From the IMG/VR virus record IMGVR_UViG_3300014598_000002: a stretch of DNA of 64,000 bases; one strand, 5' to 3'. The notes under the pieces were generated by a model. It was not told the DNA's origin and did not search any database. It was given only the letters and a program-made list of their open reading frames with translations. Shown here one piece after another: positions 16,637-51,723 of the stretch. The position numbers and the translations under genes are program-made. The number at the start of each line of letters is the position of its first letter. Position 1 is the first letter of the stretch. Source of the DNA: a virus. Lineage: Duplodnaviria > Heunggongvirae > Uroviricota > Caudoviricetes.

Positions 16637-16664
16637 ATGGCCCGATTCTTTCGGGCATTTTCAT
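16637..16664. terminator. intergenic hairpin terminator (GCCCGA-ttctt-TCGGGC + T-run), probably bidirectional
   Basis: Stem-loop followed by ATTTTC. Lies between convergent genes. Confidence 0.5.
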
Positions 16665-17587
16665 TAATAGTTATATATGTTATTTCTTATGATCTCTTGA
16701 ATTTGCACATTGACGGGGAAACAGCTTTCCATTTCATCTTTAAAAATAGAACTCTCACCTCTAAAGTGATATGCCAAATTTGAGAAGTAATCTAGCAGTC
16801 GGTCTAAATGAAGATCGCATAGTTCCATATATTCCTGAACTACAGGGTATTGCATGACAAGTAGTTTATTATCAGTTTTAAGTCTTAAAAATTCATCATA
16901 GTCATTAAGCAATCTATTCAAGGAATGAGGATAGGTCTCCCAGGCAACAGGGAATTTAAAATCCTCTTCCGGCAAACCTGATTCTTCAATTTCTTCATTT
17001 ACTTCGTTAATGACTTTCATAAGTTCATGTTTTGAACTCGTTGCCATCTCAACAACTTCCTTGTCAAGCTCGGTCATCCATAGCTTCGACCAATCCTGCT
17101 TGTGCATTGGACGAAGACGATGCTTGTGCGATTCAAAGATAATATTAGTTTTTGAATCCTTATTTTTTCGTGCCTTCTCAGAATAGTTATCAAGGCTTTC
17201 ACTATCTAAATGACGCCAGTATATTTCAGGCTCATCTTTAATATTCATTTCATTAAGACTTACAAGCACAATTACTACCGGCTCATGTTGAGAACTCCAA
17301 TAGCCAAGGTTATCAAGACCAACTCTAACACTTAAACTTTCTTCCATCTGTCTTGAGGTAGTTTTAACCTGAACAGAAATAAAAGCCCCTGTTGATTTGG
17401 TGTCATCTGCAAACATTTCAACCTGAGCATCAATTCCCATGTCAACACTCAATAGTCGACAAGGCCAGCCAAAGTATCGTGATATCCAGTAGGCGAATAA
17501 ATACTCCCCGGCATGTCCGTAGGCACTGGATTTTGGGTAAATCATCGCCTCTTTTGGTGACTGGTTGTTTGTCTTTGGTGATTTCAT
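16664..17587 (-). CDS. DUF4365-like protein (N-terminal PD-(D/E)xK-like nuclease fold) with acidic helical C-terminal domain
   Basis: AT-rich gene. N-terminus SAYGHAGEYLFAYWISRYFGWPCRLLSVDMGIDAQVE...ISVQVKTT resembles the DUF4365 core. Start set at the internal ATG (RBS AAGGA). The longer track ORF runs antisense into a good + gene. An alternative ATG at 17650 has a GGAGGG RBS. Confidence 0.5.
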   Translation of the reverse strand: MKSPKTNNQSPKEAMIYPKSSAYGHAGEYLFAYWISRYFGWPCRLLSVDMGIDAQVEMFADDTKSTGAFISVQVKTTSRQMEESLSVRVGLDNLGYWSSQHEPVVIVLVSLNEMNIKDEPEIYWRHLDSESLDNYSEKARKNKDSKTNIIFESHKHRLRPMHKQDWSKLWMTELDKEVVEMATSSKHELMKVINEVNEEIEESGLPEEDFKFPVAWETYPHSLNRLLNDYDEFLRLKTDNKLLVMQYPVVQEYMELCDLHLDRLLDYFSNLAYHFRGESSIFKDEMESCFPVNVQIQEIIRNNIYNY

Positions 17588-17713
17588 TTTTAATTCCTTG
17601 TTAAAACTCAATCTTCCCCTTTCGCCCCAAAAATGTCTACCGCCAATCATGGCAGTAACCCTCCATTTGTTTGATATAATCAGATACATAAAAGTAAGCT
17701 GGAACCTATCAAT

Positions 17714-18145
17714 ATGAACACCGATATCTACGAAAAAATCATGTCCGACCTGGAGTTCGACCGCGACAATCTGGAGGAAGTCTGGCGTCAGCAACCGCGC
17801 CTGTTGATGGAGTACGGCTCTAAGCTGGCGCGGGCAGAACGCGAAGTCGCAGATGCAAAACTCTCCCTCGATGCGATTGAGGCGAAAATCTACGACAATG
17901 AGCGTAAGAACCTGAGTATGAACGGCATTAAGTTCAATGAATCCGTACTGGAGGCGAAGGTTAGAACCAACCCGCAATACCTCGCGAAGCGCCAGAAACT
18001 CGACGATGCCCGGCACATTGCAGATCTGTACAAGCACGCTGTAGCCGCCTTCTCCCACCGCCGCGACATGATTGTCCAGGCGTCCAAAATGGCTATCGTG
18101 GAGATTGAACGTTTGGGCGCCGAACGTTTCCACTCCCCCCGTTAA
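17714..18145 (+). CDS. hypothetical protein (coiled-coil)
   Basis: 143 aa with backbone-like composition. Confidence 0.5.
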   Translation: MNTDIYEKIMSDLEFDRDNLEEVWRQQPRLLMEYGSKLARAEREVADAKLSLDAIEAKIYDNERKNLSMNGIKFNESVLEAKVRTNPQYLAKRQKLDDARHIADLYKHAVAAFSHRRDMIVQASKMAIVEIERLGAERFHSPR

Positions 18146-39597: not shown

Positions 39598-40011
39598 ATG
39601 GCCAGAGGGATGTATGTGTTGTGTGAAATTGAAGGTGTGCTGGCGAGAGCCAGCCATCGCAAAGCAGTGCCTGATGCGGATGCAGGCGCTCTCATTGCCG
39701 GTGATGAACTCATCTTTCCCACCAGCCGCATGTTGCGTGGTTTTGCTCGCTCCGGTGCTGAAGTGGTGCTTATCAGTAGTCGTCCGGAAGCGCTCGAAGG
39801 CCCAACCAAACGCTGGCTGAAGGACTTCGGCATTGATTATGACTGGCTCCACCTGGTTCCGCGCGGTGTCAGTTTTGAAACCCATATCAAGCGCACGCTG
39901 GCAGAGCACAAAGGCGACTTACTTATCGCCGCACTGGTTCATGATCCGCGTCTGCGTTCTGCGCTGGCAGACTCTCACCAGCGACCAACCATCTATGAGG
40001 TAAGCCAATGA
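39598..40011 (+). CDS. hypothetical protein
   Basis: ATG right after the thyA stop. Track start is further upstream inside thyA. Confidence 0.4.
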   Translation: MARGMYVLCEIEGVLARASHRKAVPDADAGALIAGDELIFPTSRMLRGFARSGAEVVLISSRPEALEGPTKRWLKDFGIDYDWLHLVPRGVSFETHIKRTLAEHKGDLLIAALVHDPRLRSALADSHQRPTIYEVSQ

Positions 40012-40484
40012 AGATGATTGCAGCTGTTGGCCGCAACTATGAAATCGGCATTGGCAACGAACTTCCCTGGCGTTGCCCGACCGATCTGAAACTGTTCAAA
40101 CAACTCACCAAAAACGCCACTGTCGTGATGGGACGCAAGACGATGGAAAGTCTCAAGCGCCCGCTGCCAGAGCGCCATAACCTCGTTTTGACGCGCTCTC
40201 GTGGTTATATCCCCAATGGGTTCTACCCCGCTGGCATCGATGACGTTTTGAGACTACCAGATCCGGTATGGGTGATTGGTGGCGGGCAGATTTACTCGCT
40301 CTTTATGCCACACGTAGAAGAGATCTGGCTGTCGCATATTGGCGTGGATGTGCCGGGCGCGGATGCGTTCTTCCCGGCGCCAATGATGCGTTCTTTAGGG
40401 TTCGTACCAGTCGAAACGGCTTATACCCAACGTGCAAATGAGGATGAGCCTGGCTTTTTGCAGATCGTATACAGAAGGTCGTAA
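40008..40484 (+). CDS. folA: dihydrofolate reductase
   Basis: MIAAVGRNYEIGIGNELPW...VVMGRKT matches the DHFR N-terminal signature. Confidence 0.85.
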   Translation: MKMIAAVGRNYEIGIGNELPWRCPTDLKLFKQLTKNATVVMGRKTMESLKRPLPERHNLVLTRSRGYIPNGFYPAGIDDVLRLPDPVWVIGGGQIYSLFMPHVEEIWLSHIGVDVPGADAFFPAPMMRSLGFVPVETAYTQRANEDEPGFLQIVYRRS

Positions 40485-41128
40485 TGGATTACCGGATTGG
40501 AATCACTGGGGCACAGGGCAGTGGAAAAACAACCCTGGCAAGGTACATCGATGCGCATTATGGCATTCCGTATGTGGACGCCGGCGTTGGCAAGCTGATG
40601 AGCGGTCTGGGGGTGAAGGTTGGCGAGCGTTTGCCCCTTTACGAACGTCTTCAGGTTCAGATGGAGATTGCCAGACACATCGAGATGATCACCCGCGGCG
40701 TTGAAGGTTTTGTTATCGACCGCACGCCAGCCGATGTCATGGCTTATACGCTAGACCTGGTCGGTCAGACAAACGAAGACCGCTGCATCGAGCTGGCTCT
40801 CGACATTGAGCAGTTTTGCCACAAAGCGGCTATTTCCAACTTCAATGCTATCGCGGGTCTTCGCCCGGGCGTTGAGCTTTCCAGCAAAGATCTCGCGCGT
40901 CCCCAGCGAGGATCGCTTGACCGTCTCTATGTTGCTCGAATCGATGCACTTATGTGCGGTGAGCTGACGAAAATCAACACCCTTCCCCAAACCGGCGATC
41001 TGCAGGTGTTCGTTATCTCTGAAAAGTGTCGCACGGTTGAAGCGCGAGCCAGATCGGTATTGCGAGTGCTGGACAGAGCCGCTGAAAACATTGAGCGCCG
41101 TATAACAGGACGAGTGACCTTCCACTGA
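40484..41128 (+). CDS. P-loop NTPase / putative (deoxy)nucleotide kinase
   Basis: Walker A ITGAQGSGKTTLA at the N-terminus. 214 aa. Confidence 0.5.
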   Translation: MDYRIGITGAQGSGKTTLARYIDAHYGIPYVDAGVGKLMSGLGVKVGERLPLYERLQVQMEIARHIEMITRGVEGFVIDRTPADVMAYTLDLVGQTNEDRCIELALDIEQFCHKAAISNFNAIAGLRPGVELSSKDLARPQRGSLDRLYVARIDALMCGELTKINTLPQTGDLQVFVISEKCRTVEARARSVLRVLDRAAENIERRITGRVTFH

Positions 41129-41191
41129 ATATTGCTCCCCTGTTGGGCAGTGTGACAATAAGACACGCGAAATGAATCGAGGAAAAACAGA

Positions 41192-41611
41192 ATGATAGAC
41201 GAACTTCCCCTCTCGGATGAATTAGATCGTAAAGCGATTGAAGCATTGATCCGCATTGCTGACGAACAATCCCGCTCTTTGATGAGTGAACGTGAAGCAG
41301 GTCTGGCTATCCGCGCAGTGTTTGAGTCCGTTCAAGGGCTTGTTGGGGAAGAGGTTGGCGAAGCCATCAATGTGGCGATGTCGCAGTTCAATGGCGGCAC
41401 CAAGCGCCCTCTGTTTCCTATGCACCTCAAACTCTCAGGCGGTACGGTTCTGTACGTGTCCGTCTGTCTGGAGACCAACCAAATCCAGATCCTCAACACA
41501 TCAACGGGCGAATGGCGCGAGCCGGTCGTCTGCGAAAGTGGCGAGGACGCACTGAAAAAGGCTGCTCAGTTTGTGCGTGGCGCACTGCTGAAAGGCGCGA
41601 AGAAGCTGTAA
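41192..41611 (+). CDS. hypothetical protein
   Basis: 139 aa with an AGGAAAAACAG RBS region. Confidence 0.5.
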   Translation: MIDELPLSDELDRKAIEALIRIADEQSRSLMSEREAGLAIRAVFESVQGLVGEEVGEAINVAMSQFNGGTKRPLFPMHLKLSGGTVLYVSVCLETNQIQILNTSTGEWREPVVCESGEDALKKAAQFVRGALLKGAKKL

Positions 41612-41620
41612 GGAGTACCA

Positions 41621-42163
41621 ATGACCACGATTGTCGGTGGCGTCGATATTGAGTCCACAGGGCTGGACTTCACATCCGGCCACAAAATTATCGAAATCGC
41701 GATAACCCGTTATGAACTGGAAACCCAGAAGCACATCGACAGCCTTGAGATGCGCTTCAACCCGCGTCGCAGTATCGATCCGAAGGCGCAGGCAGTACAT
41801 GGTATTTCGCTGGAAGATCTGGCAGCAGAACCGCTACTGGCTGATCACGCAGGCAAGATTGCTGCATATATGGGTGCATGTAGCGCGTTAGTTGCCCATA
41901 ACGGAGAGGCTTTTGACCTTCCGTTCATTCGCCACGAGTTCGGCAGCTATGGGGTGAAATTGCCGGATATCCCTCTGGTTGACACTATGCTAGATGGGCT
42001 GTGGGCTACCGAAGATGGGAAGCGTCCACGCCTAGAAGAGCTGGCGTTCTCACTTGGCTTCACTTACGACCGTGAGAAGGCCCACAGTGCCCTCTACGAT
42101 ACTGAGCTGATGATGCAATGTTTTTTCAAAGCTCGGGAAAAATATGGTTTTTTCGATTTTTAA
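41621..42163 (+). CDS. DnaQ-like (DEDDh) 3'-5' exonuclease
   Basis: Exo motifs VDIESTGL (I), AHNGEAFDLPF (II), HSALYDTE (III). Confidence 0.75.
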   Translation: MTTIVGGVDIESTGLDFTSGHKIIEIAITRYELETQKHIDSLEMRFNPRRSIDPKAQAVHGISLEDLAAEPLLADHAGKIAAYMGACSALVAHNGEAFDLPFIRHEFGSYGVKLPDIPLVDTMLDGLWATEDGKRPRLEELAFSLGFTYDREKAHSALYDTELMMQCFFKAREKYGFFDF

Positions 42164-42168
42164 TTTAA

Positions 42169-42205
42169 TAAGCGGTGCAATAAATTGCACCGCTTAACTT
42201 TTTAA
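42169..42205. terminator. bidirectional hairpin terminator AAGCGGTGCAA-taaa-TTGCACCGCTT
   Basis: Perfect 11-bp stem between convergent genes, with T/A runs on both sides. Confidence 0.6.
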
Positions 42206-43317
42206 AATGAAACTTTTGCCTTCAGTAACTTGGCTGCCATTTCAAAATCAATTTCTCCGGTTTTAGACTCTGTTGCGAGCTTGTACAGAACCAGAACGTA
42301 TGTATCACCCAGGACTTTTGTGATTGCACTTGCCGTTGTTGCAGAAATCGCCCCTCCAACGAGGCTTCCTACACCAGGTATCATCTTTAATAGCCCTGTG
42401 ACAATTGTTCGTCCTAAAAAAACTGCACCACCAGCACCTATTAAAGACGTTACCATTGTTGTTAATGCCGCTTTAGATACATCCATTCCAAAGGTATAAC
42501 TGATTTTTGCAATCATTGTGACTTGAATTGGCACTAAGGTAAATGCATCTGAAAATGGAACTGGGGTTGCTGCGGCCGCACCTGCGAGGACTGTTGCGGC
42601 AATAACCTCTTTACTAGCTTGCTCTTTTTTTATATCCAATGCTTTTTTGTTCTTAATTGAAAGAGCATTGGAAAATGCCTTTTTTTGTGCTTCTGGAATA
42701 ACCTCATACGATGTTTGGATTAAATCATCTATGCCTCTAACCTTTCTTTTTCCTATGATTTCATCTGGTTCATCTTCATCATAAATCGTTTCTTCAATCG
42801 CACGAGTTAGACAGACTGCATGGCTATAGTTTTTAAATGCAATCTCAACTTCTTTCGCAAATTCATTGTTTTTGAAGCTGTTTGTTTTTGTTAGTACTAC
42901 TATAACCGGTATTCCTTTACTTATCAAAAACTTGGCTATGTTTAGTTCAGCTTTTTCATAACGTTGACCGGTGTCATTAATACATAGCCAAGCGAGATGG
43001 ACGTAATTCTCTGATTCTTCACTATTGTTATGTTCGTTTATGTAATTTTCAATGTTTAATCTGGTTTTATCGTAATCCGCGACTTCCAGTCCCTGAGTAT
43101 CAATGATTTGTAATGGGACGCCTTCTTTCTTAATTACTTTTATATTTTCTGTTACAGGGCGGCCTACCCCAGTTCTCGCAAAGTCTCCACGAAATACACT
43201 ATTAATGAGAGAACTTTTTCCTACACCAGTCTTTCCTATCACGATGATGTTAGCTATCGGCATATCTTTTACTGCATCGTTCAAAATGGCATTTACATCA
43301 ATGTTCACATTAATCAC
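42202..43317 (-). CDS. small GTPase (Era/EngA-like G domain) with C-terminal membrane-associated, DUF697-like hydrophobic region
   Basis: Very AT-rich. G1 GKTGVGKSS, G3 DTQG, G4-like LTKTN. C-terminal about 130 aa rich in A/G/T/V amphipathic or TM segments. The precise start is uncertain: GTG at 43317, GTG at 43308 with an AAGGAG RBS, or ATG at 43263. Confidence 0.6.
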   Translation of the reverse strand: MINVNIDVNAILNDAVKDMPIANIIVIGKTGVGKSSLINSVFRGDFARTGVGRPVTENIKVIKKEGVPLQIIDTQGLEVADYDKTRLNIENYINEHNNSEESENYVHLAWLCINDTGQRYEKAELNIAKFLISKGIPVIVVLTKTNSFKNNEFAKEVEIAFKNYSHAVCLTRAIEETIYDEDEPDEIIGKRKVRGIDDLIQTSYEVIPEAQKKAFSNALSIKNKKALDIKKEQASKEVIAATVLAGAAAATPVPFSDAFTLVPIQVTMIAKISYTFGMDVSKAALTTMVTSLIGAGGAVFLGRTIVTGLLKMIPGVGSLVGGAISATTASAITKVLGDTYVLVLYKLATESKTGEIDFEMAAKLLKAKVSF

Positions 43318-43518
43318 TCCTTTAGCAGAAGCCTCTCATCATAGCGGCTGATTTTACATTTGGAAATCATATGAGGTTTGGATGAAAAAAAATCTTCAAA
43401 AGCGTGAGGTAATTTATTGTAATTACCTGAATTTATTCGTTTTCTACCTGATAGGTTTTGCCAGAATACGCTCAACCAAAACGCGGAAACGCACCAACGA
43501 AAACATAAGGAGTTAAAA

Positions 43519-44361
43519 ATGAGCGCAGTTACAAACACTGTTAAAAACGATGACCTGGACGAACTGACTGCAATGTTGCAATCTCTCGACGAACCAGTGC
43601 AGAAAGCTGCGAAAATGAGCGGTGTCGACGAGATCGACGATCTTCTCTCTGGTCTGGATGATGCAATCGCAAAACCAGTCGAGGCGGTGGCGGATGAAGT
43701 CATGAATGCCAGCTCTACCGGCGATCTGAGTAGCGTTCTGGAAGAGCTTGAGATTGAGCACGAATCGGTGAAGGTCGAGGAACCAGAGCGTGACCTTGTT
43801 GCGGAGATAGTGAACGAGCCAGCGCCTGAACTTGACGCTCGAAGTACTGAGACTACCGGTACAGATCCAACCCCTTTACCTTCAGTGGCGTCAGAGCCTA
43901 AACCTGAAGAAGAGCAGCCAAAACGCCAGAAGGCAAAATCAGAGCGTACCCCGGCCAAACCTCGCTTCACGCTGGAAGGTAAGGACGAATCGTTCTATGC
44001 GACAGCCGGTCTGGAAAGTGAGAGCTTTACTGCCGCATTCGAAGGGGCGCCAGTCAAAGCGAAAGACAAGATCTTAAACCTTTTGAACTGGTTTAGTGGT
44101 GGGCCGCAAATCAGCGTCTACACGGTAATCGCAATGCGCCATATCCTTGACGCGAACACGGCGACCAGCAATAGCATTAAACTGGCGCTAATGAGCAACC
44201 CGGAGAAACCATATCCGCTCAACACCGCTTCGACTCAGGCTGGCCAGATGATGGCTGTGTTTCCAGCTACTGGCATTGCCACCAGGGAAGGTGGAAATCT
44301 AACCCTTAATAAAGAGTCGCCGATCGTCAAAAAATTCATAGCGGAGTATTCCATTGGATGA
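43519..44361 (+). CDS. hypothetical acidic protein
   Basis: 280 aa with an AAGGAG RBS. Acidic N-terminal half. Confidence 0.5.
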   Translation: MSAVTNTVKNDDLDELTAMLQSLDEPVQKAAKMSGVDEIDDLLSGLDDAIAKPVEAVADEVMNASSTGDLSSVLEELEIEHESVKVEEPERDLVAEIVNEPAPELDARSTETTGTDPTPLPSVASEPKPEEEQPKRQKAKSERTPAKPRFTLEGKDESFYATAGLESESFTAAFEGAPVKAKDKILNLLNWFSGGPQISVYTVIAMRHILDANTATSNSIKLALMSNPEKPYPLNTASTQAGQMMAVFPATGIATREGGNLTLNKESPIVKKFIAEYSIG

Positions 44362-44546
44362 TGTTCCCCTACCCGATCTAAAGCCCCCTGACAGCTTTAG
44401 GACGCTGGGTAAGCTCATTGCATACCCAGCATCGATAAAACGCGCCAGAGAGCTTCCCGTTTGCGAATCTGGCGCGTTCTTCTTTGTTTGCTATCCGTTT
44501 GATTAAATGAAAAAATAGGTAAGTATTTACCTATCAGGGCAAGATA

Positions 44547-45140
44547 ATGATCGCAGCCGAAAAAATCAAAAAGCGAGAGCGTGATGCCTCTCTTCGCGAC
44601 CTTTGGCGCACACCGCAGTGGTTGTTTGTCGCCATCCAACGTTACATAGGCGTAAAGTTCGATGTGGACGTCGCCTGCAACAAAGATAACGCTCTCCTGC
44701 CGAACTTTATCGGTGTTGAGCGTGATGCGCTCAAGTGCAGCTGGGGAGAACCTGGCACTGTGGCGTTCCTTAACCCGCCCTACTCCAAAATCACCCCCTG
44801 TATAGACGCAGCCATCCGCGAGCAGGCGCGTGGAGTGACGACGGTCATGTTGATACCACAATCCCTCGATACGCAGTGGTACGAGCGTGCGGCTGAATGC
44901 GCCAACGAAACCGTCATCTTGTCTGGCGGCCGCGTGGCGTTCGTTGAGCCAGATGTTGAACTTGGGCTGGTGGAGGTGAACATCAACCCTGGTGGCAGCA
45001 TGTTGCTTATCTTCCGTGGCTACTGTCAGGAAGCTGGGCACACCATCAGCAAGATACCGCTGGCGGTGATGAAAAAGCTGGGTGGTTATGATCCTGCCAA
45101 TGTTGTCAGGAAGAAGAGACCACGTAAAAAGGCAGCGTAA
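44547..45140 (+). CDS. dam: phage Dam-type DNA N6-adenine methyltransferase
   Basis: Catalytic NPPYS motif and the LWRTPQWLF N-terminal region typical of T1/phage Dam MTases. Confidence 0.7.
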   Translation: MIAAEKIKKRERDASLRDLWRTPQWLFVAIQRYIGVKFDVDVACNKDNALLPNFIGVERDALKCSWGEPGTVAFLNPPYSKITPCIDAAIREQARGVTTVMLIPQSLDTQWYERAAECANETVILSGGRVAFVEPDVELGLVEVNINPGGSMLLIFRGYCQEAGHTISKIPLAVMKKLGGYDPANVVRKKRPRKKAA

Positions 45141-45342
45141 ACACCAGTCTGGGAGTTAGTTTGAGAACCTGCTTCCGTATATATAAATAACTAAGTACTA
45201 ATTATTAATATATACAGACGCAGGCTTTTTAAGACGTGATTTCCAAACAACTCCCAGACCGTTTTACACCTCCAGAACCCACTGGAACCCCTCTTCAGAC
45301 GCTCTAGAATCGATTTTATGAACCACAGTAAGGAAAACTATC

Positions 45343-45579
45343 ATGGTATACCCGACGAACGTCGTAGCGCTCGTTGAGAGCGATTTTCTGGCCAAAGTGC
45401 GCGACATGATGAAAGATCGCGATAAGGCTTTCAGTCTCTACGAATGGTCGCTCAAATGTCTTCATTCAGGCGAGCACAAAGAGCTGGTGGAGCAGCTGTT
45501 AGGGGAACTCATCAATGAGGTGTTTGCCCTGAACGTCCAGCTTCATGGTCGAGAAAATAATCAATCGAATAATCGGTAA
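45343..45579 (+). CDS. hypothetical protein
   Basis: 78 aa with a GTAAGGAAAA RBS. Stop is embedded in a perfect GGTAAGTACTTACC palindrome. Confidence 0.4.
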   Translation: MVYPTNVVALVESDFLAKVRDMMKDRDKAFSLYEWSLKCLHSGEHKELVEQLLGELINEVFALNVQLHGRENNQSNNR

Positions 45580-46165
45580 GTACTTACCATTTAAAACGCA
45601 GATCGCCAGTGATAAAATCTACCCGCTTTCCGGATTGATTCCGGCAGCTCGACCTGATGGGTGGGGGATAGCGTCACTGGCGTCAGGTTTAAAAAAGCTC
45701 ACTACCAGCGTAGAACCGGCACCGTTTAGGGGTTGGGGAAGGGGGAACCAAAGTGAGCAGAGAGAAGGGTCACTTTATGATTGTCGAGTCTGGAGTGTTT
45801 CGAGAGGTTGAATCCAGTACTCCCCTTCATAAAGGGTGGGAAGATCTCGGTTCTGGGGTGCTGTCATCCATAACTTCCCAAGCCTAAGCTGGCAGTAGAC
45901 TTAGGTCATAACTTTTCAGGTTATGTAACGACCAGGTTGGTGAGGAAATTTTGTACTCACCTCCCTGGGAAAGTATTACCTGAAAAGACAACCTCTCACT
46001 TCGTTCGAGGTGAACTTCACTCACTTCGTTCGTTCAGTTCAGGTTTTATTAAAACCTGTTCTGGGAAGTAAGTTTTTCTTTTCTAAAAATTTTTAATATT
46101 TACACGCACGCGTGCGCACACGCGCGAGGAAAAAAATCGTCTTGGCGCGCGATTCTGGAGCCAAA

Positions 46166-47578: not shown

Positions 47579-49648
47579 TTACTTACACTTGTTATTTAAA
47601 TAGCTTCTAATATATAGATCAAGCAACTTGCTTAGCTGTTTGTTAACTTCATCATGTTTTTGAGGGCTACGCATTTTAGAAAGATGTCGCTCAAGAAATT
47701 TTGAAGGCAACTTTATAACCAATTTGTTATGGTTGTCATAAAGTTCTTTTACCCAGATTAGCTCTTTATGTTTTTCTAAGTTTTCAGAGTGATCCCTATT
47801 TATAATGAAAGCTAGCCTACCATAATCTTTAAATAAATATGAATTTACTTGTCTATATTCATCAGCACCTAACGTTTTGTAGTTTTTGATTTCGAATACA
47901 ACTTGTCGAGATTGGTAATCAGTCAATATCCTTTTCCAGACAGGTGTGTCGGCAAGGTTTGTTGCAATAATGTCTCGCTGCTGTAGACCATTTTTGTTTG
48001 AATGGAGTTCAATATTGGTCAAATTCGTCGCAAACAATATTTTAATAGCTTTCAAAGCCCATGCTTCAAAATCAACAGCCCCTTCCTTACCTTCTGGGAT
48101 ATTATTTAATTCTTGAAGAAGAGCACCGATCCGTTGTTTTCGTTGTTCTTCTGATACGGAGCTAACTTCGATATCGTATTCATCGTGGATATCGTCAGCT
48201 GTTTCAGGAGTAATGTCTGACTCATGAACACTTAATGCAAGCCAATAGCAAGGATGTAGCAGAAGCTTGGAGCCTGGTGTAAACTCTTTTTCTGGTTCTT
48301 TTCCATCATGACAAAACACATATGATGAGGACTGCTGATTGTATAATCCAAAAAAACCAACACTATACAAACGTTGGATCACCTGAACAGGACCTTCAAA
48401 CAAAAGGATGTCCTGTAATTTCATTTTGTCATTAACTTCTTTTATATCAAATGCTTGGCTTATTATTTCAGAGGCTTCCGCGATGGTAAAATCTGGTCTT
48501 TTATTGCCAAAAAGCGATGTAAATATATCTAGTGCAGGGAATACATTTTCATATTCTTTTAGTAAGTCGTTAAGCCTGTTTTGAGATATTGTGTTTGCAG
48601 TGGCTTTTATGTCATCAATTATTATTTTTGTGCGATCGTGAGTTGCGGCCCTCAGGAAAGCATCATTTAATAATACCAAAATATCTCTCGGTCTATATAA
48701 TGTAAGCTTAAGTGCTTCTTTAAAACCCGTATTTGACTGTAATTCATTAGCGGTGTACGCATTCCAAACTCGCGTGTTATTTTCTATGGTTGAGTTAAAT
48801 GCAACTCTCATTCTGTTACAAACCAAATTGAAGAGATTGTATTCGTCCCAATGTAATCTTAATACCTGTCCTTCAATGTTTCTGGTAAAATCAGGGTCCA
48901 TTTTAGATATGGCTCTATGGATATTGTCTCTAACGAAAGCAAATGCGATAACTTTTTCTTGCAAATTTTGTTTTATATCAATAACAGACTGAATGAAACC
49001 GTCAACGATAGCAACCCCTAAATCATCTGGAGTGTATCCTTCATCTAGCCTGTCAGCAAAAATAACGAATTGATGGTTTGATTTTGAAATAGCTTCGAAT
49101 AAAACCTCTTCTAGTAAATCTAATTCAAAATTATCTGATAAATCTGATATTCTTGTAGCCGGTTTAACATCTTTTCCAGTATCAAGGATAGATATTAATT
49201 TTTTCCTTATTTTACCACTTATGTTTTGTCTTTTAGCTCCCCAAGATAATAAGTGTTTCTCTACACTTTTATAGTCTAGATCATTTTTCATCCTATAGTG
49301 GCTTGCTATTTCGGAAAGTAATTCCATATAAATCGCATAGCGCCAAGCTAGTTTGCTTCCGGCTTTAATATGCAAATAATTTTCACCGAAAAGTGAGACA
49401 ACATCTCTTAGACCAATAATTTGTTCTTCAATAGGGCTAATGGTCATCACATGCGTTTTAGGTTTTGCGTGCCAATGTTTTGACAGCATATGCACTAATG
49501 CACTTTTGCCAGTGCCTCTGCGACCTACAACTATGCATCGATCATACGACTCTAAAAGAGCTTTATAATCAGTTGTTTGCCAGAATGAGGCTTCAAGCAT
49601 TTTGGCATCGTGTTCTGCTCTGATATCCCCTAGAACGTTACCTTTCAT
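47579..49648 (-). CDS. P-loop NTPase (Walker A GRRGTGKS, Walker B VIFADRLDE) with C-terminal Mrr-like PD-(D/E)xK nuclease module
   Basis: 689 aa, strongly AT-rich. The C-terminus FEAWALKAIKILFATN...RDIIATN...RQVVFEIKNY fits the Mrr_cat-like D...ExK pattern. Has its own terminator. Confidence 0.6.
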   Translation of the reverse strand: MKGNVLGDIRAEHDAKMLEASFWQTTDYKALLESYDRCIVVGRRGTGKSALVHMLSKHWHAKPKTHVMTISPIEEQIIGLRDVVSLFGENYLHIKAGSKLAWRYAIYMELLSEIASHYRMKNDLDYKSVEKHLLSWGAKRQNISGKIRKKLISILDTGKDVKPATRISDLSDNFELDLLEEVLFEAISKSNHQFVIFADRLDEGYTPDDLGVAIVDGFIQSVIDIKQNLQEKVIAFAFVRDNIHRAISKMDPDFTRNIEGQVLRLHWDEYNLFNLVCNRMRVAFNSTIENNTRVWNAYTANELQSNTGFKEALKLTLYRPRDILVLLNDAFLRAATHDRTKIIIDDIKATANTISQNRLNDLLKEYENVFPALDIFTSLFGNKRPDFTIAEASEIISQAFDIKEVNDKMKLQDILLFEGPVQVIQRLYSVGFFGLYNQQSSSYVFCHDGKEPEKEFTPGSKLLLHPCYWLALSVHESDITPETADDIHDEYDIEVSSVSEEQRKQRIGALLQELNNIPEGKEGAVDFEAWALKAIKILFATNLTNIELHSNKNGLQQRDIIATNLADTPVWKRILTDYQSRQVVFEIKNYKTLGADEYRQVNSYLFKDYGRLAFIINRDHSENLEKHKELIWVKELYDNHNKLVIKLPSKFLERHLSKMRSPQKHDEVNKQLSKLLDLYIRSYLNNKCK

Positions 49649-50037
49649 GTATTACCCTTTTAGCGTTAAAAGGAGGGGGCAATGGCCTTTGTAGACTTGA
49701 GTTCCATTTGCCTGATGCCATCCTCATCAAACTTCTTCCGTTTTCCCGAAGAGGGGGGAGATTAATGTATCATTTTTAACGGGTTACACAAGAATATGAC
49801 TTCTTAATCTAGGAGCTGAGCGTTCTTCAGGAAAAAAATAAGCATGAATGACAGCGGTTGTAGCCTTAGATTTTAAGGTGGTTACGTTCTTAATTTATTG
49901 AATTACCAATTAACTTTGAACACTATCAATTTAGCGTCTCTAAGCGTCTCTACAACCCCTGTGAATACTGCTTTTACGCCTTTTCAACTTTGGGAAAATA
50001 ACACCAATAAGAAAACAATTTGTTTAATAGTGTGATC

Positions 50038-51723
50038 ATGAATACAGCCCTTTCCATCATTGACGCTATCACCCCAAACACTGATATCGACTACCGGCAG
50101 GAAATGAACGTCATCCACGAAATTGTGGCCGAGTGCGAGAAAGAGATCGCATTCATGCATCAGGTTCACGACTTCGTTTATGGCGACGAACGCCACAACA
50201 TGATTAACCGCCTGCTGCGACTCAACCACCGGCCGGATGACGAGCGCACACGCTTTAACAGAGCCTGGCTGGACAAGGTCGACCTTGAATGGGTGAAACA
50301 GAATATCTGGGCCGAGTACTGGAAGAAGGTCACGGATATGACAAACGTTCTGCTGATCATGCCAGCTTCCCGCCGCGACGAGTGGCGTGAGCAGTTTATC
50401 GAGGGCAAGCAGGAGACCATCAGGACTGACAGAACCGGCTACCAGATGAAGGTTAAGGAGTTCGTTGGTGTGCCGGAGTTCAAAGCAGAAACGGTCATCC
50501 CAACGATGCTCAATCTGCTGAATGACAGGCACAAATATCTCTCTGAGCGCGTGTATGGCTTGTTTAAAGCGCTGAGTCCTGCCCACAAGACCAATAAGAC
50601 GAACGGCTTTAGCGAGCGTCTGATCATCGCCAACTGCATTTCCGAGTTCTGGCGGGACAGCGTCAGCGTGAACTACCGGAAAGAGGACTACATCGACGAC
50701 CTGCGCGTCATGCTTCATTTCTTAGCACACAAAGAGTTCATCACCATCAACCGCACAACTGAGATGCTTTCAGCTGCGTACCGGGCAAACGACTGCCAGA
50801 CCGGTGACTGGATGAATGTCGACGGAAACCTGATGCGCGTGAAGATGTTCAAGAACGGCAACGTTCACTTTGAAATACATCCTGACGTGGCCTGGAAGCT
50901 GAATGAGGTGCTGGCTTACAGTATGCCTGCAGCAATCCCGGCGCCATGCCGTACTGCACCCAAAACACGGGCACCAAAAGAGTTCGGGTTAATCCAGAAG
51001 ACGATCTCCGAGCCGGTTCGTACTGCGCTGCGCGACGGGCGATTCAGCAAAGACAAAGGCGTCTGGTACTTCTCTGATTCCAACCTACAGAAGTCACAGG
51101 TGGAAGAGCTTGAGCGCACACTGAACTTCATTGGCGGCGTGCAGGAGAAAAAGCACTGGCAGTTCCCGTATGAGATCGGCCATACGCTCAATACGATTGT
51201 GGCCACCGGCTTAATACCGGATACAAAATCACACCAGTTCTACCCTACCCCACGTTTGATAGCGGAGTACGTTGCCAGAGCCATCGAGCTGAAGCCAGGT
51301 GAGAAGCTGCTGGAGCCTGAAGCCGGGCGCGGAGATCTGCTGGCCTGCATCGACGCCAATCCGGAAGACGTTACCTGCATAGAAGTCGCACCTCTCTTCG
51401 CTGATATCCTGCTTGGCAAGGGGTACACAAATACGGTCTGCTGCGACTTCATGAAGTGGTCTGAGGACAACGCAGGTTATCAGTTCGACAAAATCGTCAT
51501 GAACCCGCCCTACTCTCTTGGCCGTCACAGAGAGCATACGCTGGCCGCGCTGGAGCATCTTAAAGTCGGCGGGCGACTGGTGGCTGTACTGCCGGGTGAT
51601 GCGCCAGTTCTGAACTGGGTGTCGCTGGATAATTACGTTTATGCCAAAGGGAAGTCGTTTACTGACGAGTTTGAAGACACCGGAATCACTGTCAGCGTAT
51701 ACGTTTTCAAACGTGTAAAATGA
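50038..51723 (+). CDS. orphan DNA N6-adenine methyltransferase with large N-terminal domain (motif I EPEAGRGDL, motif IV NPPYS near C-terminus)
   Basis: About 400-aa N-terminal region of unknown function, then FxGxG-like and NPPY motifs 60 aa from the C-terminus. Motif B immediately upstream. Start at ATG 50038; the track uses TTG 50020. Confidence 0.6.
   Translation: MNTALSIIDAITPNTDIDYRQEMNVIHEIVAECEKEIAFMHQVHDFVYGDERHNMINRLLRLNHRPDDERTRFNRAWLDKVDLEWVKQNIWAEYWKKVTDMTNVLLIMPASRRDEWREQFIEGKQETIRTDRTGYQMKVKEFVGVPEFKAETVIPTMLNLLNDRHKYLSERVYGLFKALSPAHKTNKTNGFSERLIIANCISEFWRDSVSVNYRKEDYIDDLRVMLHFLAHKEFITINRTTEMLSAAYRANDCQTGDWMNVDGNLMRVKMFKNGNVHFEIHPDVAWKLNEVLAYSMPAAIPAPCRTAPKTRAPKEFGLIQKTISEPVRTALRDGRFSKDKGVWYFSDSNLQKSQVEELERTLNFIGGVQEKKHWQFPYEIGHTLNTIVATGLIPDTKSHQFYPTPRLIAEYVARAIELKPGEKLLEPEAGRGDLLACIDANPEDVTCIEVAPLFADILLGKGYTNTVCCDFMKWSEDNAGYQFDKIVMNPPYSLGRHREHTLAALEHLKVGGRLVAVLPGDAPVLNWVSLDNYVYAKGKSFTDEFEDTGITVSVYVFKRVK

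Follow-up and report, generated by a model that had tools for sequence, protein, structure and literature searches.

A predicted P-loop NTPase with a DUF697 C-terminus in an accessory cassette of an SSU5-like phage-plasmid is a candidate single-gene, membrane-directed defence factor

The stretch of viral DNA analysed here (IMG/VR record IMGVR_UViG_3300014598_000002, 64,000 nucleotides, hereafter the window) harbours an AT-rich gene on the minus strand behind a gene for a dnaQ-like 3'-5' exonuclease. The region shows 100% identity to the non-mobilisable IncFIB plasmid p34399-121.660kb (p34399) of Enterobacter hormaechei, which is related to Salmonella phage SSU5, and the window is, judged by sequence, an SSU5-like phage-plasmid of Enterobacter. 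The gene has a GC content of 0.382 and a GC3 of 0.295, compared to 0.51-0.55 and 0.53-0.67 in the neighbouring genes, and is convergent with the exonuclease gene. The strong AT-richness and the convergence with the backbone that had been claimed in the original prediction, which was made from the letters of the window, are thus confirmed.

The open reading frame was first listed as 42202..43317 on the minus strand. An AGGAG Shine-Dalgarno sequence is located at 43321-43317; the GTG codon at 43317 overlaps this sequence, and the GTG at 43308 sits 8 nt downstream of it. Translation likely starts at GTG 43308 and not at 43317, and the predicted product therefore comprises 368 aa (coding sequence 42202..43308, minus strand, stop codon at 42202-42204), in agreement with the coordinates of RefSeq entry WP_004109984.1, which is annotated as 'GTPase'. 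In the Pfam search, MMR_HSR1 matched at aa 24-144 (E 2.2e-11, 44.3 bits, gathering cutoff 21.9) and DUF697 (PF05128) at aa 225-348 (E 2.2e-8, 34.5 bits, cutoff 27.7, profile positions 13-139 of 162), which bears out the proposed fusion of a G domain to a DUF697-like region. AIG1 also scored above its cutoff (E 1e-7, 32 bits, cutoff 27), while Septin (23.5, cutoff 26.2) and IIGP (13, cutoff 24) stayed below theirs. The AlphaFold2 model, built with 71 sequences (pLDDT 84, pTM 0.83), places a G domain up to residue ~190, followed by seven helices.

The G domain, of the TRAFAC type of P-loop NTPases, spans 42739..43308 (minus strand; aa 1-190 in the 368-aa numbering) and is nearest to septin, AIG1, IRG and EngB domains. 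Its G1 motif or P-loop, GKTGVGKS, is found at 43213..43236 (minus strand, aa 25-32), with G, G, V, G, K and S invariant in the alignment. The G3 motif of switch II, DTQG, lies at 43090..43101 (minus strand, aa 70-73) and is followed by a conserved L and an invariant E, so that D70, G73 and E75 are all invariant. Across 111 family members, G1, the switch-I Thr of G2 (PVT) and G3 (DTxGLE; DTQGLE in the window protein) are invariant or nearly so. In the degenerate G4 motif TKTN at 42880..42891 (minus strand, aa 140-143), T and K are conserved and the specificity Asp is absent: the Asp of the canonical [N/T]KxD is Asn in the window protein and is not conserved in the family either, where the fourth position of the motif (146 in the 371-aa numbering of the alignment) is occupied by R in 49 sequences, N in 11, M in 10, K in 9 and S in 8. 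G1 and G3 as originally read from the sequence are thereby borne out in the 111 sequences, whereas LTKTN, which had been taken for G4, is non-canonical and without the Asp. The protein possesses the G1, G2 and G3 motifs and the Pfam score of a TRAFAC-class P-loop GTPase, and its G4 deviates from [N/T]KxD. Because the Asp that reads guanine is missing from G4, guanine specificity does not seem assured, and the label 'GTPase' is best read as an assumption about specificity. The degenerate G4 could also allow the sensing of a nucleotide other than GTP.

The search with the family profile against PDB sequences returned septins as the best matches (septin-3, 4.4e-10), followed by EngA, Irgb6 (7.9e-8), Irgb10, Toc and GIMAP4. 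The match to Irgb10 extends to residue ~250, and the conserved HxAWxCI strand aligns with the VHCCLYFI region of septins in the HMMER alignment. By these profile matches, the G domain appears nearer to septin, AIG1, IRG and EngB than to Era and EngA, and the earlier description as Era/EngA-like was imprecise. None of the NCBIfam equivalog models came near its cutoff: Der reached 37.3 (cutoff 306.7), YsxC 36.4 (cutoff 124.5) and Era 29.1 (cutoff 237). Membership in the Era, EngA (Der) or EngB families was rejected on these scores and on the architecture of the protein, which has a single G domain, no KH domain and DUF697 as its C-terminus.

The C-terminal region, which includes DUF697, is all-helical and covers 42205..42738 (minus strand, aa 191-368), with long helices rich in A, G, T, V and S. 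Its motifs PxPFSD...LVPIQ and GR..V..LLK.iPG.G are invariant. Three uncharged stretches of 19-22 residues each have Kyte-Doolittle values of 1.23-1.61, borderline for transmembrane helices. In the AlphaFold2 model (pTM 0.83) the hydrophobic helices of the tail are packed into a compact body, and the lowest confidence falls on the segment GAGGAVFLGRTIVTGLLKMIPGVGSLVGG. The fold of this region weakly resembles dynamin stalks. The tail had been proposed to consist of amphipathic or transmembrane segments rich in A, G, T and V; helices of this composition are indeed present, and their transmembrane status is borderline (Kyte-Doolittle 1.2-1.6). The modelled tail fits a hairpin that inserts conditionally into a membrane, which is not proof of a transmembrane protein. 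When the DUF697 part was used by itself as the query, nothing but fragments of this family was retrieved. In the homologue from small plasmids described below, DUF697 was detected at 29 bits, over the cutoff.

The gene resides in an inserted AT-rich cassette of ~1.26 kb at 42155..43413 (GC 0.377), delimited by alignment to an empty site and to SSU5. The empty site is found in pECL-90-1, with a backbone 97.8% identical, where a spacer of 128 nt separates the exonuclease gene from the gene that follows. Homology to this site stops near 42154 and returns near 43414, and the cassette takes the place of ~47 nt of the empty-site spacer. The left breakpoint falls within the last codons of the 3'-5' exonuclease gene, and the C-terminus of the exonuclease is rewritten. 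The right edge is fuzzy, with weak similarity from 43414 and solid identity from ~43447. Similarly, SSU5 has no gene between its 3'-5' exonuclease gene (SSU5_086) and SSU5_087. The empty-site comparison, together with the GC contrast, supports the initial view of a single foreign gene inserted after the dnaQ-like gene. Neither target-site duplications nor transposon ends were detected at the cassette edges, where we found only short repeats at chance level and one palindrome. This palindrome, AGGTAATT-N6-AATTACCT, was read from the sequence at 43407..43428, at the right cassette boundary, and is possibly an operator or a recombination scar.

The cassette also contains putative signals of its own. 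A terminator-like hairpin with a 12-bp stem and a 4-nt loop is located at 42169..42196 (plus strand), between the convergent exonuclease and GTPase genes; it is part of the cassette, and a different hairpin is present at the empty site. A clear T-run follows on the plus strand only, and the tail on the minus strand, TTATTAAATT, is moderately T-rich. The hairpin proposed as a bidirectional terminator is thus present, and its function in both directions is plausible from the sequence and not more than that, given the T-run on one strand. Upstream of the gene and inside the cassette, a sigma-70-like promoter candidate, TTTCCA-17-TATGAT, was found at 43338..43366 (minus strand). It agrees with the consensus at 9 of 12 positions and is weak evidence, as the number of such sites in the consensus scan was no higher than in shuffled sequences.

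The backbone around the gene (40000-46000) was matched by 689 plasmid records, and the protein is encoded at an identity of at least 80% in ~44 of them. It is missing from all 12 related phage records, among them that of SSU5. The gene is accessory and not core: with these counts it is clearly not a housekeeping gene shared by all relatives, the finding that had been named in advance as speaking against the original prediction. Among 5426 complete E. coli genomes, five matched the gene, always on plasmids, and one of these matches was a 338-nt fragment. Presence does not follow backbone similarity: the gene is absent from backbones with 97-98% identity and present in Klebsiella backbones with 92-93%. 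Wherever the gene is present the insertion site is constant, including in a Cronobacter element whose protein has 86% amino-acid identity. Both domains have a pN/pS of ~0.1 when compared with the copies from Klebsiella and Cronobacter; the gene is under purifying selection and to all appearances functional. The pS value against the Klebsiella copy is 0.23 for the GTPase gene and a similar 0.29 for the flanking exonuclease gene. A pS near that of the exonuclease gene, together with a pN/pS of ~0.1, suggests that the gene has been resident for a long time and was repeatedly lost or replaced by recombination. In some Klebsiella lineages (P0013, P0014, CP064822), copies with truncations or frameshifts are frequent.

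Other AT-rich open reading frames lie antisense to the backbone elsewhere in the window, with a composition like that of the GTPase gene. They include a full-length DUF4238-Pers defence gene (Rst_DUF4238) at 2049..2963 (E 9.5e-107), an AT-rich DUF4365/REase-like open reading frame at 16664..18133, and a 689-aa P-loop open reading frame at 47579..49648 with a match to PDC-M36A (1e-13), all three on the strand opposite to the backbone. With several AT-rich, opposite-strand inserts in the same window, among them the DUF4238 gene, the GTPase cassette looks like one more defence-type insert on this phage-plasmid.

In a set of 1.84 billion representatives, the family to which the protein belongs comprises ~1000 clusters (50% identity, E <= 1e-30); its members come from Proteobacteria, Cyanobacteria, Firmicutes, Actinobacteria, Bacteroidota and other groups. 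When the neighbours in 53 genome loci were clustered all-against-all, no conserved partner gene was found, and the gene therefore appears to be a stand-alone module. The recurrent neighbours in these loci were tandem paralogues, in four, and a downstream gene of 633 aa restricted to actinobacteria. Large co-directional genes upstream were unrelated housekeeping genes, with the exception of WYL regulators: a WYL-WCX regulator lies directly upstream, in the same direction, of four different homologues, including one from Bacteroidota. The N-terminal extensions of longer homologues contained no recognisable domains, except for a second G domain in one. Downstream open reading frames of 69-77 aa were seen in Pseudomonas and Burkholderia loci and have no counterpart in the window.

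Homologues with 45-50% identity were found in several types of mobile or conflict-related loci; this neighbourhood evidence comes from ~11 close homologues and is anecdotal rather than a statistical enrichment. One resides in the accessory region of a lambda-like prophage, another in an integrase island with EcoRII-C and IS21, and a third in an island with Fic, IS21 and an AbiJ-like gene. Others were located in a CP4-57-like island, adjoining YfjT and DUF932, and behind a WYL gene, adjoining PDC-S36/PD-T4-1-like genes and a McrA-like nuclease. Eleos-like dynamin clusters adjoin two of the close homologues; one homologue shares an island bounded by an integrase gene with BrxR and a LeoA-like (4e-37) dynamin cluster, and one is placed behind a WYL-WCX gene and before patatin-dynamin LeoBC-like genes. 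The list further includes a homologue adjoining an ars island and one in a nondescript Burkholderia locus. A 37%-identical homologue is carried by ColE1-type mobilisable plasmids of ~5 kb, where it is the only listed gene beyond mobilisation and replication (according to the PLSDB gene table, which is incomplete), and homologues are also present on small Acinetobacter plasmids. Distant homologues (25-40% identity) adjoin FeoB, photolyase, NlpC/P60 and PanB, and the association with conflict loci is therefore not universal across the family.

Assignment to a known or candidate defence system of PADLOC v2.0.0 was rejected, as none of its models matched beyond the P-loop (LeoBC, 1.5e-5 over 72 aa; PDC-S29, 1.2e-3), and the matches in PHROG were only to families of unknown function. 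Membership in LeoA/LeoBC or Dynamin_N was also discarded, as neither a full-length match nor the large G domain with neck, trunk and paddle was found. Our literature search with the terms DUF697, YcjF family, WP_004109984, YfjP/YeeP/YkfA and GIMAP anti-phage found nothing on this family.

Taken together, the domain architecture, the accessory and mobile status, the purifying selection and the recurring defence-island and WYL contexts lead us to favour, with a probability of roughly 0.45, a nucleotide-gated, membrane-acting accessory protein that would protect the lysogen and its element against phages or other mobile DNA. The gene would then be a lysogenic-conversion 'moron', a self-contained cassette with a putative promoter and terminator of its own that only a minority of the SSU5-like phage-plasmids have acquired or kept. 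The septin/AIG1/IRG-like G domain at the N-terminus would act as the switch, probably by dimerising or oligomerising in a nucleotide-dependent manner by analogy with its structural relatives, and the helical hairpins of DUF697, built of small and hydrophobic residues, would bind to or insert into the inner membrane. Two routes to protection are conceivable: the membrane could be permeabilised upon infection (abortive infection), or it could be sealed or remodelled, so that lysis is delayed or entry is blocked, as in dynamin-like defence proteins. The original prediction had favoured abortive infection or exclusion. We found no evidence favouring abortive infection over membrane protection, entry exclusion or a non-defence role at the membrane. 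The broader proposal of an exclusion or defence factor agrees with the recurrence on mobile elements and in defence islands, and is weakened by the lack of a matching PADLOC model and by the ordinary chromosomal contexts of the distant homologues. A defence or exclusion role of this single gene is credible from the sequence data, as is the view that a known domain architecture is used here as a new variant of GTPase-based, membrane-directed defence. The farther-reaching idea that the whole family is a previously unrecognised single-polypeptide bacterial immune GTPase, a 'mini-dynamin/IRG' whose switch drives the DUF697 hairpin into or along the inner membrane upon infection and which acts as a stand-alone defence, is rather doubtful.

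The same architecture may also be read without defence, as a membrane-stress or envelope-maintenance factor analogous to a fused YcjX-YcjF, which would allow the host, or the element while it is induced and lyses the cell, to withstand damage to the inner membrane, for instance by adjusting the timing of lysis or by enduring envelope stress. The fusion of a G domain to DUF697 mirrors the YcjX-YcjF pair, and the chromosomal surroundings of the distant homologues fit such a role. Links of the ycjXF genes to psp operons and to the sigma-32 regulon have been described (PMC3041696). However, the G domain is unrelated to YcjX, which belongs to DUF463, the profile comparison with YcjF was not significant, and the window protein lacks the transmembrane helices with which YcjF begins. 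The sporadic distribution on mobile elements and the WYL control suit an accessory conflict gene better, and we consider this explanation unlikely. An ordinary GTPase of ribosome assembly or translation, of the Era/EngA/EngB type, that boosts translation would agree with database labels such as '50S ribosome-binding GTPase' and 'GTP-binding protein Der'. It is very improbable, as all equivalog scores are far under their cutoffs, the protein combines a degenerate G4 and a DUF697 C-terminus with the lack of a KH domain or a second G domain, and the gene is accessory and sporadic.

The occurrence of homologues as the only listed cargo of ~5-kb ColE1-type plasmids, and on small Acinetobacter plasmids, would fit an alternative role in plasmid competition or maintenance, either by entry or superinfection exclusion of related plasmids and phage-plasmids or by retention of the carrier. 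The phage-plasmid studied here competes with many co-circulating relatives (689 records), and a related SSU5-like plasmid is reported to protect Klebsiella from transferable DNA (PMC8969562). Nevertheless, many homologues are chromosomal and reside in islands or prophages rather than on plasmids, and none of the 53 loci revealed a conserved partner or antitoxin gene. Known entry-exclusion proteins lack NTPase domains and are small lipoproteins or membrane proteins. This role is accordingly rated as quite improbable, and a nucleotide-gated protein that protects the lysogen and its element at the membrane is the reading that we retain.

If the gene is defensive, it would represent a new one-gene system that is spread by phage-plasmids, prophages and small plasmids, with carriers among clinical Enterobacter, Klebsiella, Citrobacter and E. 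coli, and it would have a bearing on phage therapy and on the competition among SSU5-like elements. It would also provide a first function for DUF697 and, by extension, for the widely conserved YcjXF pair, and the eukaryotic immune GTPases of the IRG, GIMAP and septin groups would gain a compact relative in bacteria. Such a protein could serve as a compact model of how the nucleotide state is translated into membrane action in septin-, IRG- and dynamin-type GTPases. If it is not defensive, the locus is a clean case of purifying selection on an accessory cassette that occupies a defined site in SSU5-like phage-plasmids.

Among known systems, the YcjX-YcjF pair shares DUF697 with the window protein and, likewise, joins it to a P-loop NTPase, by fusion in the window protein and by translational coupling of ycjF to ycjX, the gene of a P-loop protein, in E. 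coli. A role at the inner membrane is suspected for both. DUF697 covers aa 183-341 of E. coli YcjF (1.2e-55), and the hhalign comparison of the family with this protein gave an E value of 0.13. In contrast to the septin/AIG1-like TRAFAC domain of the window protein, the NTPase of the pair is a DUF463 protein. YcjF begins with two transmembrane helices that are missing here, and ycjXF is a conserved chromosomal operon, whereas the window gene is sporadic and mobile. A YcjF-type organisation was rejected, as the N-terminus is a G domain instead of transmembrane helices and an adjacent ycjX partner is lacking; no DUF463 gene was found near the GTPase gene in the window or near its homologues in their loci.

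The clade of septins, AIG1 (GIMAP), Toc and IRG proteins gave the best PDB profile matches, and AIG1 exceeded its Pfam cutoff, but Septin and IIGP did not, and the G4 Asp is missing from the window protein. Neither a septin unique element nor IRG helical domains were identified in it. Many members of this clade are membrane-anchored, and IRG and GIMAP proteins are immune effectors. Bacterial dynamin-like proteins, such as DynA and IniA, and the Eleos (LeoA/LeoBC) defence system also count among the closest known systems. The dynamin DynA confers defence by membrane stabilisation and delayed lysis (PMC8844932), and Eleos has been described as related to GIMAP GTPases (PMC13276650). Rst_DUF4238, in the same window, has no sequence relationship to the GTPase, whose defence role is that of a candidate only; what the two genes share is the style of insertion, as both are AT-rich, lie on the strand opposite to the backbone, carry their own signals and vary in presence among related elements.

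The GTPase cassette, the AT-rich insert that carries the GTPase-DUF697 gene, has a perfect 8-bp palindrome, AGGTAATT-N6-AATTACCT, exactly at its right boundary (43407..43428). The palindrome lies upstream of the promoter-like site of the cassette and could represent an operator or a recombination scar. At the other edge (42140..42163), the insertion of the cassette replaced the final codons of the 3′-5′ exonuclease gene. The exonuclease encoded in the window has 180 aa and ends in ...KYGFFDF, whereas in the Salmonella phage SSU5 and in the relatives with an empty site it has 185 aa and a different tail. Within the 6-kb neighbourhood corresponding to window positions 40000-46000, some Klebsiella and Raoultella relatives (plasmids H25-H29 and H19-H20) also harbour the IS5-family elements ISKpn26 and ISEc68, as well as an adhP gene.

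The window possesses other AT-rich genes, including a 689-aa ORF at 47579..49648 (-), with a GC content of only 0.354. This ORF encodes an AAA_16/ORC-Cdc6-like P-loop at its N-terminus, and its C-terminal ~140 aa match the PADLOC candidate model PDC-M36A (1e-13). SSU5 holds small ORFs and an anti-repressor gene at the same site, and, considering this position, the 689-aa ORF is likely another defence-type insert. Directly downstream, at 50020..51723 (+), a 567-aa DUF4942 protein is encoded, the C-terminal part of which resembles DNA methyltransferases (PADLOC mad2, 2.9e-15; type II MTase, 7e-10).

Four further ORFs run opposite to their neighbours or to the backbone. The 304-aa ORF at 2049..2963 (-), AT-rich with a GC content of 0.395, matches DUF4238 over its full length (Pfam, 1.2e-40; PADLOC DUF4238-Pers, 9.5e-107); the phage-plasmid has on board a member of this family, which is known as a single-gene anti-phage family. 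In the 489-aa ORF at 16664..18133 (-), with a GC content of 0.42, aa 221-346 correspond to the restriction-endonuclease-like domain DUF4365 (6e-15); the ORF also matches the PADLOC model of Argonaute-associated REase (3e-13). For the AT-rich ORFs at 62146..62796 (-) (216 aa, GC 0.387) and 3041..3598 (-) (185 aa, GC 0.455), no match was found in Pfam or PADLOC.

Among the loci around GTPase-DUF697 homologues, genes encoding WYL-WCX transcription factors were found directly upstream of the homologue and co-directional with it at L006 (6901-7953), L085 (5951-6970), L065 (8864-9874) and L025 (8442-9425), comprising Pseudomonas, Ectopseudomonas, the locus of homologue P0031 and a Bacteroidota genome. 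This arrangement at four loci suggests a recurrent regulator-effector pair. The window itself lacks a regulator of this type.

In two Pseudomonas islands, the homologue adjoins a multi-gene dynamin-like cluster. The cluster of L016 (2726-7644) includes a LeoA-like gene (4e-37), and that of L006 (9515-17107) encodes a 1236-aa patatin-dynamin fusion matching LeoBC. Genes for BrxR, an ADP-ribosylglycohydrolase and an integrase also lie on island L016. Four genomes (L027, L038, L052 and L065) possess two adjoining paralogous copies of GTPase-DUF697, and some homologues are themselves fusions with two G domains, 577-764 aa in length. These adjoining paralogues and two-G-domain fusions recall bacterial dynamins, which are organised in pairs or are two-headed.
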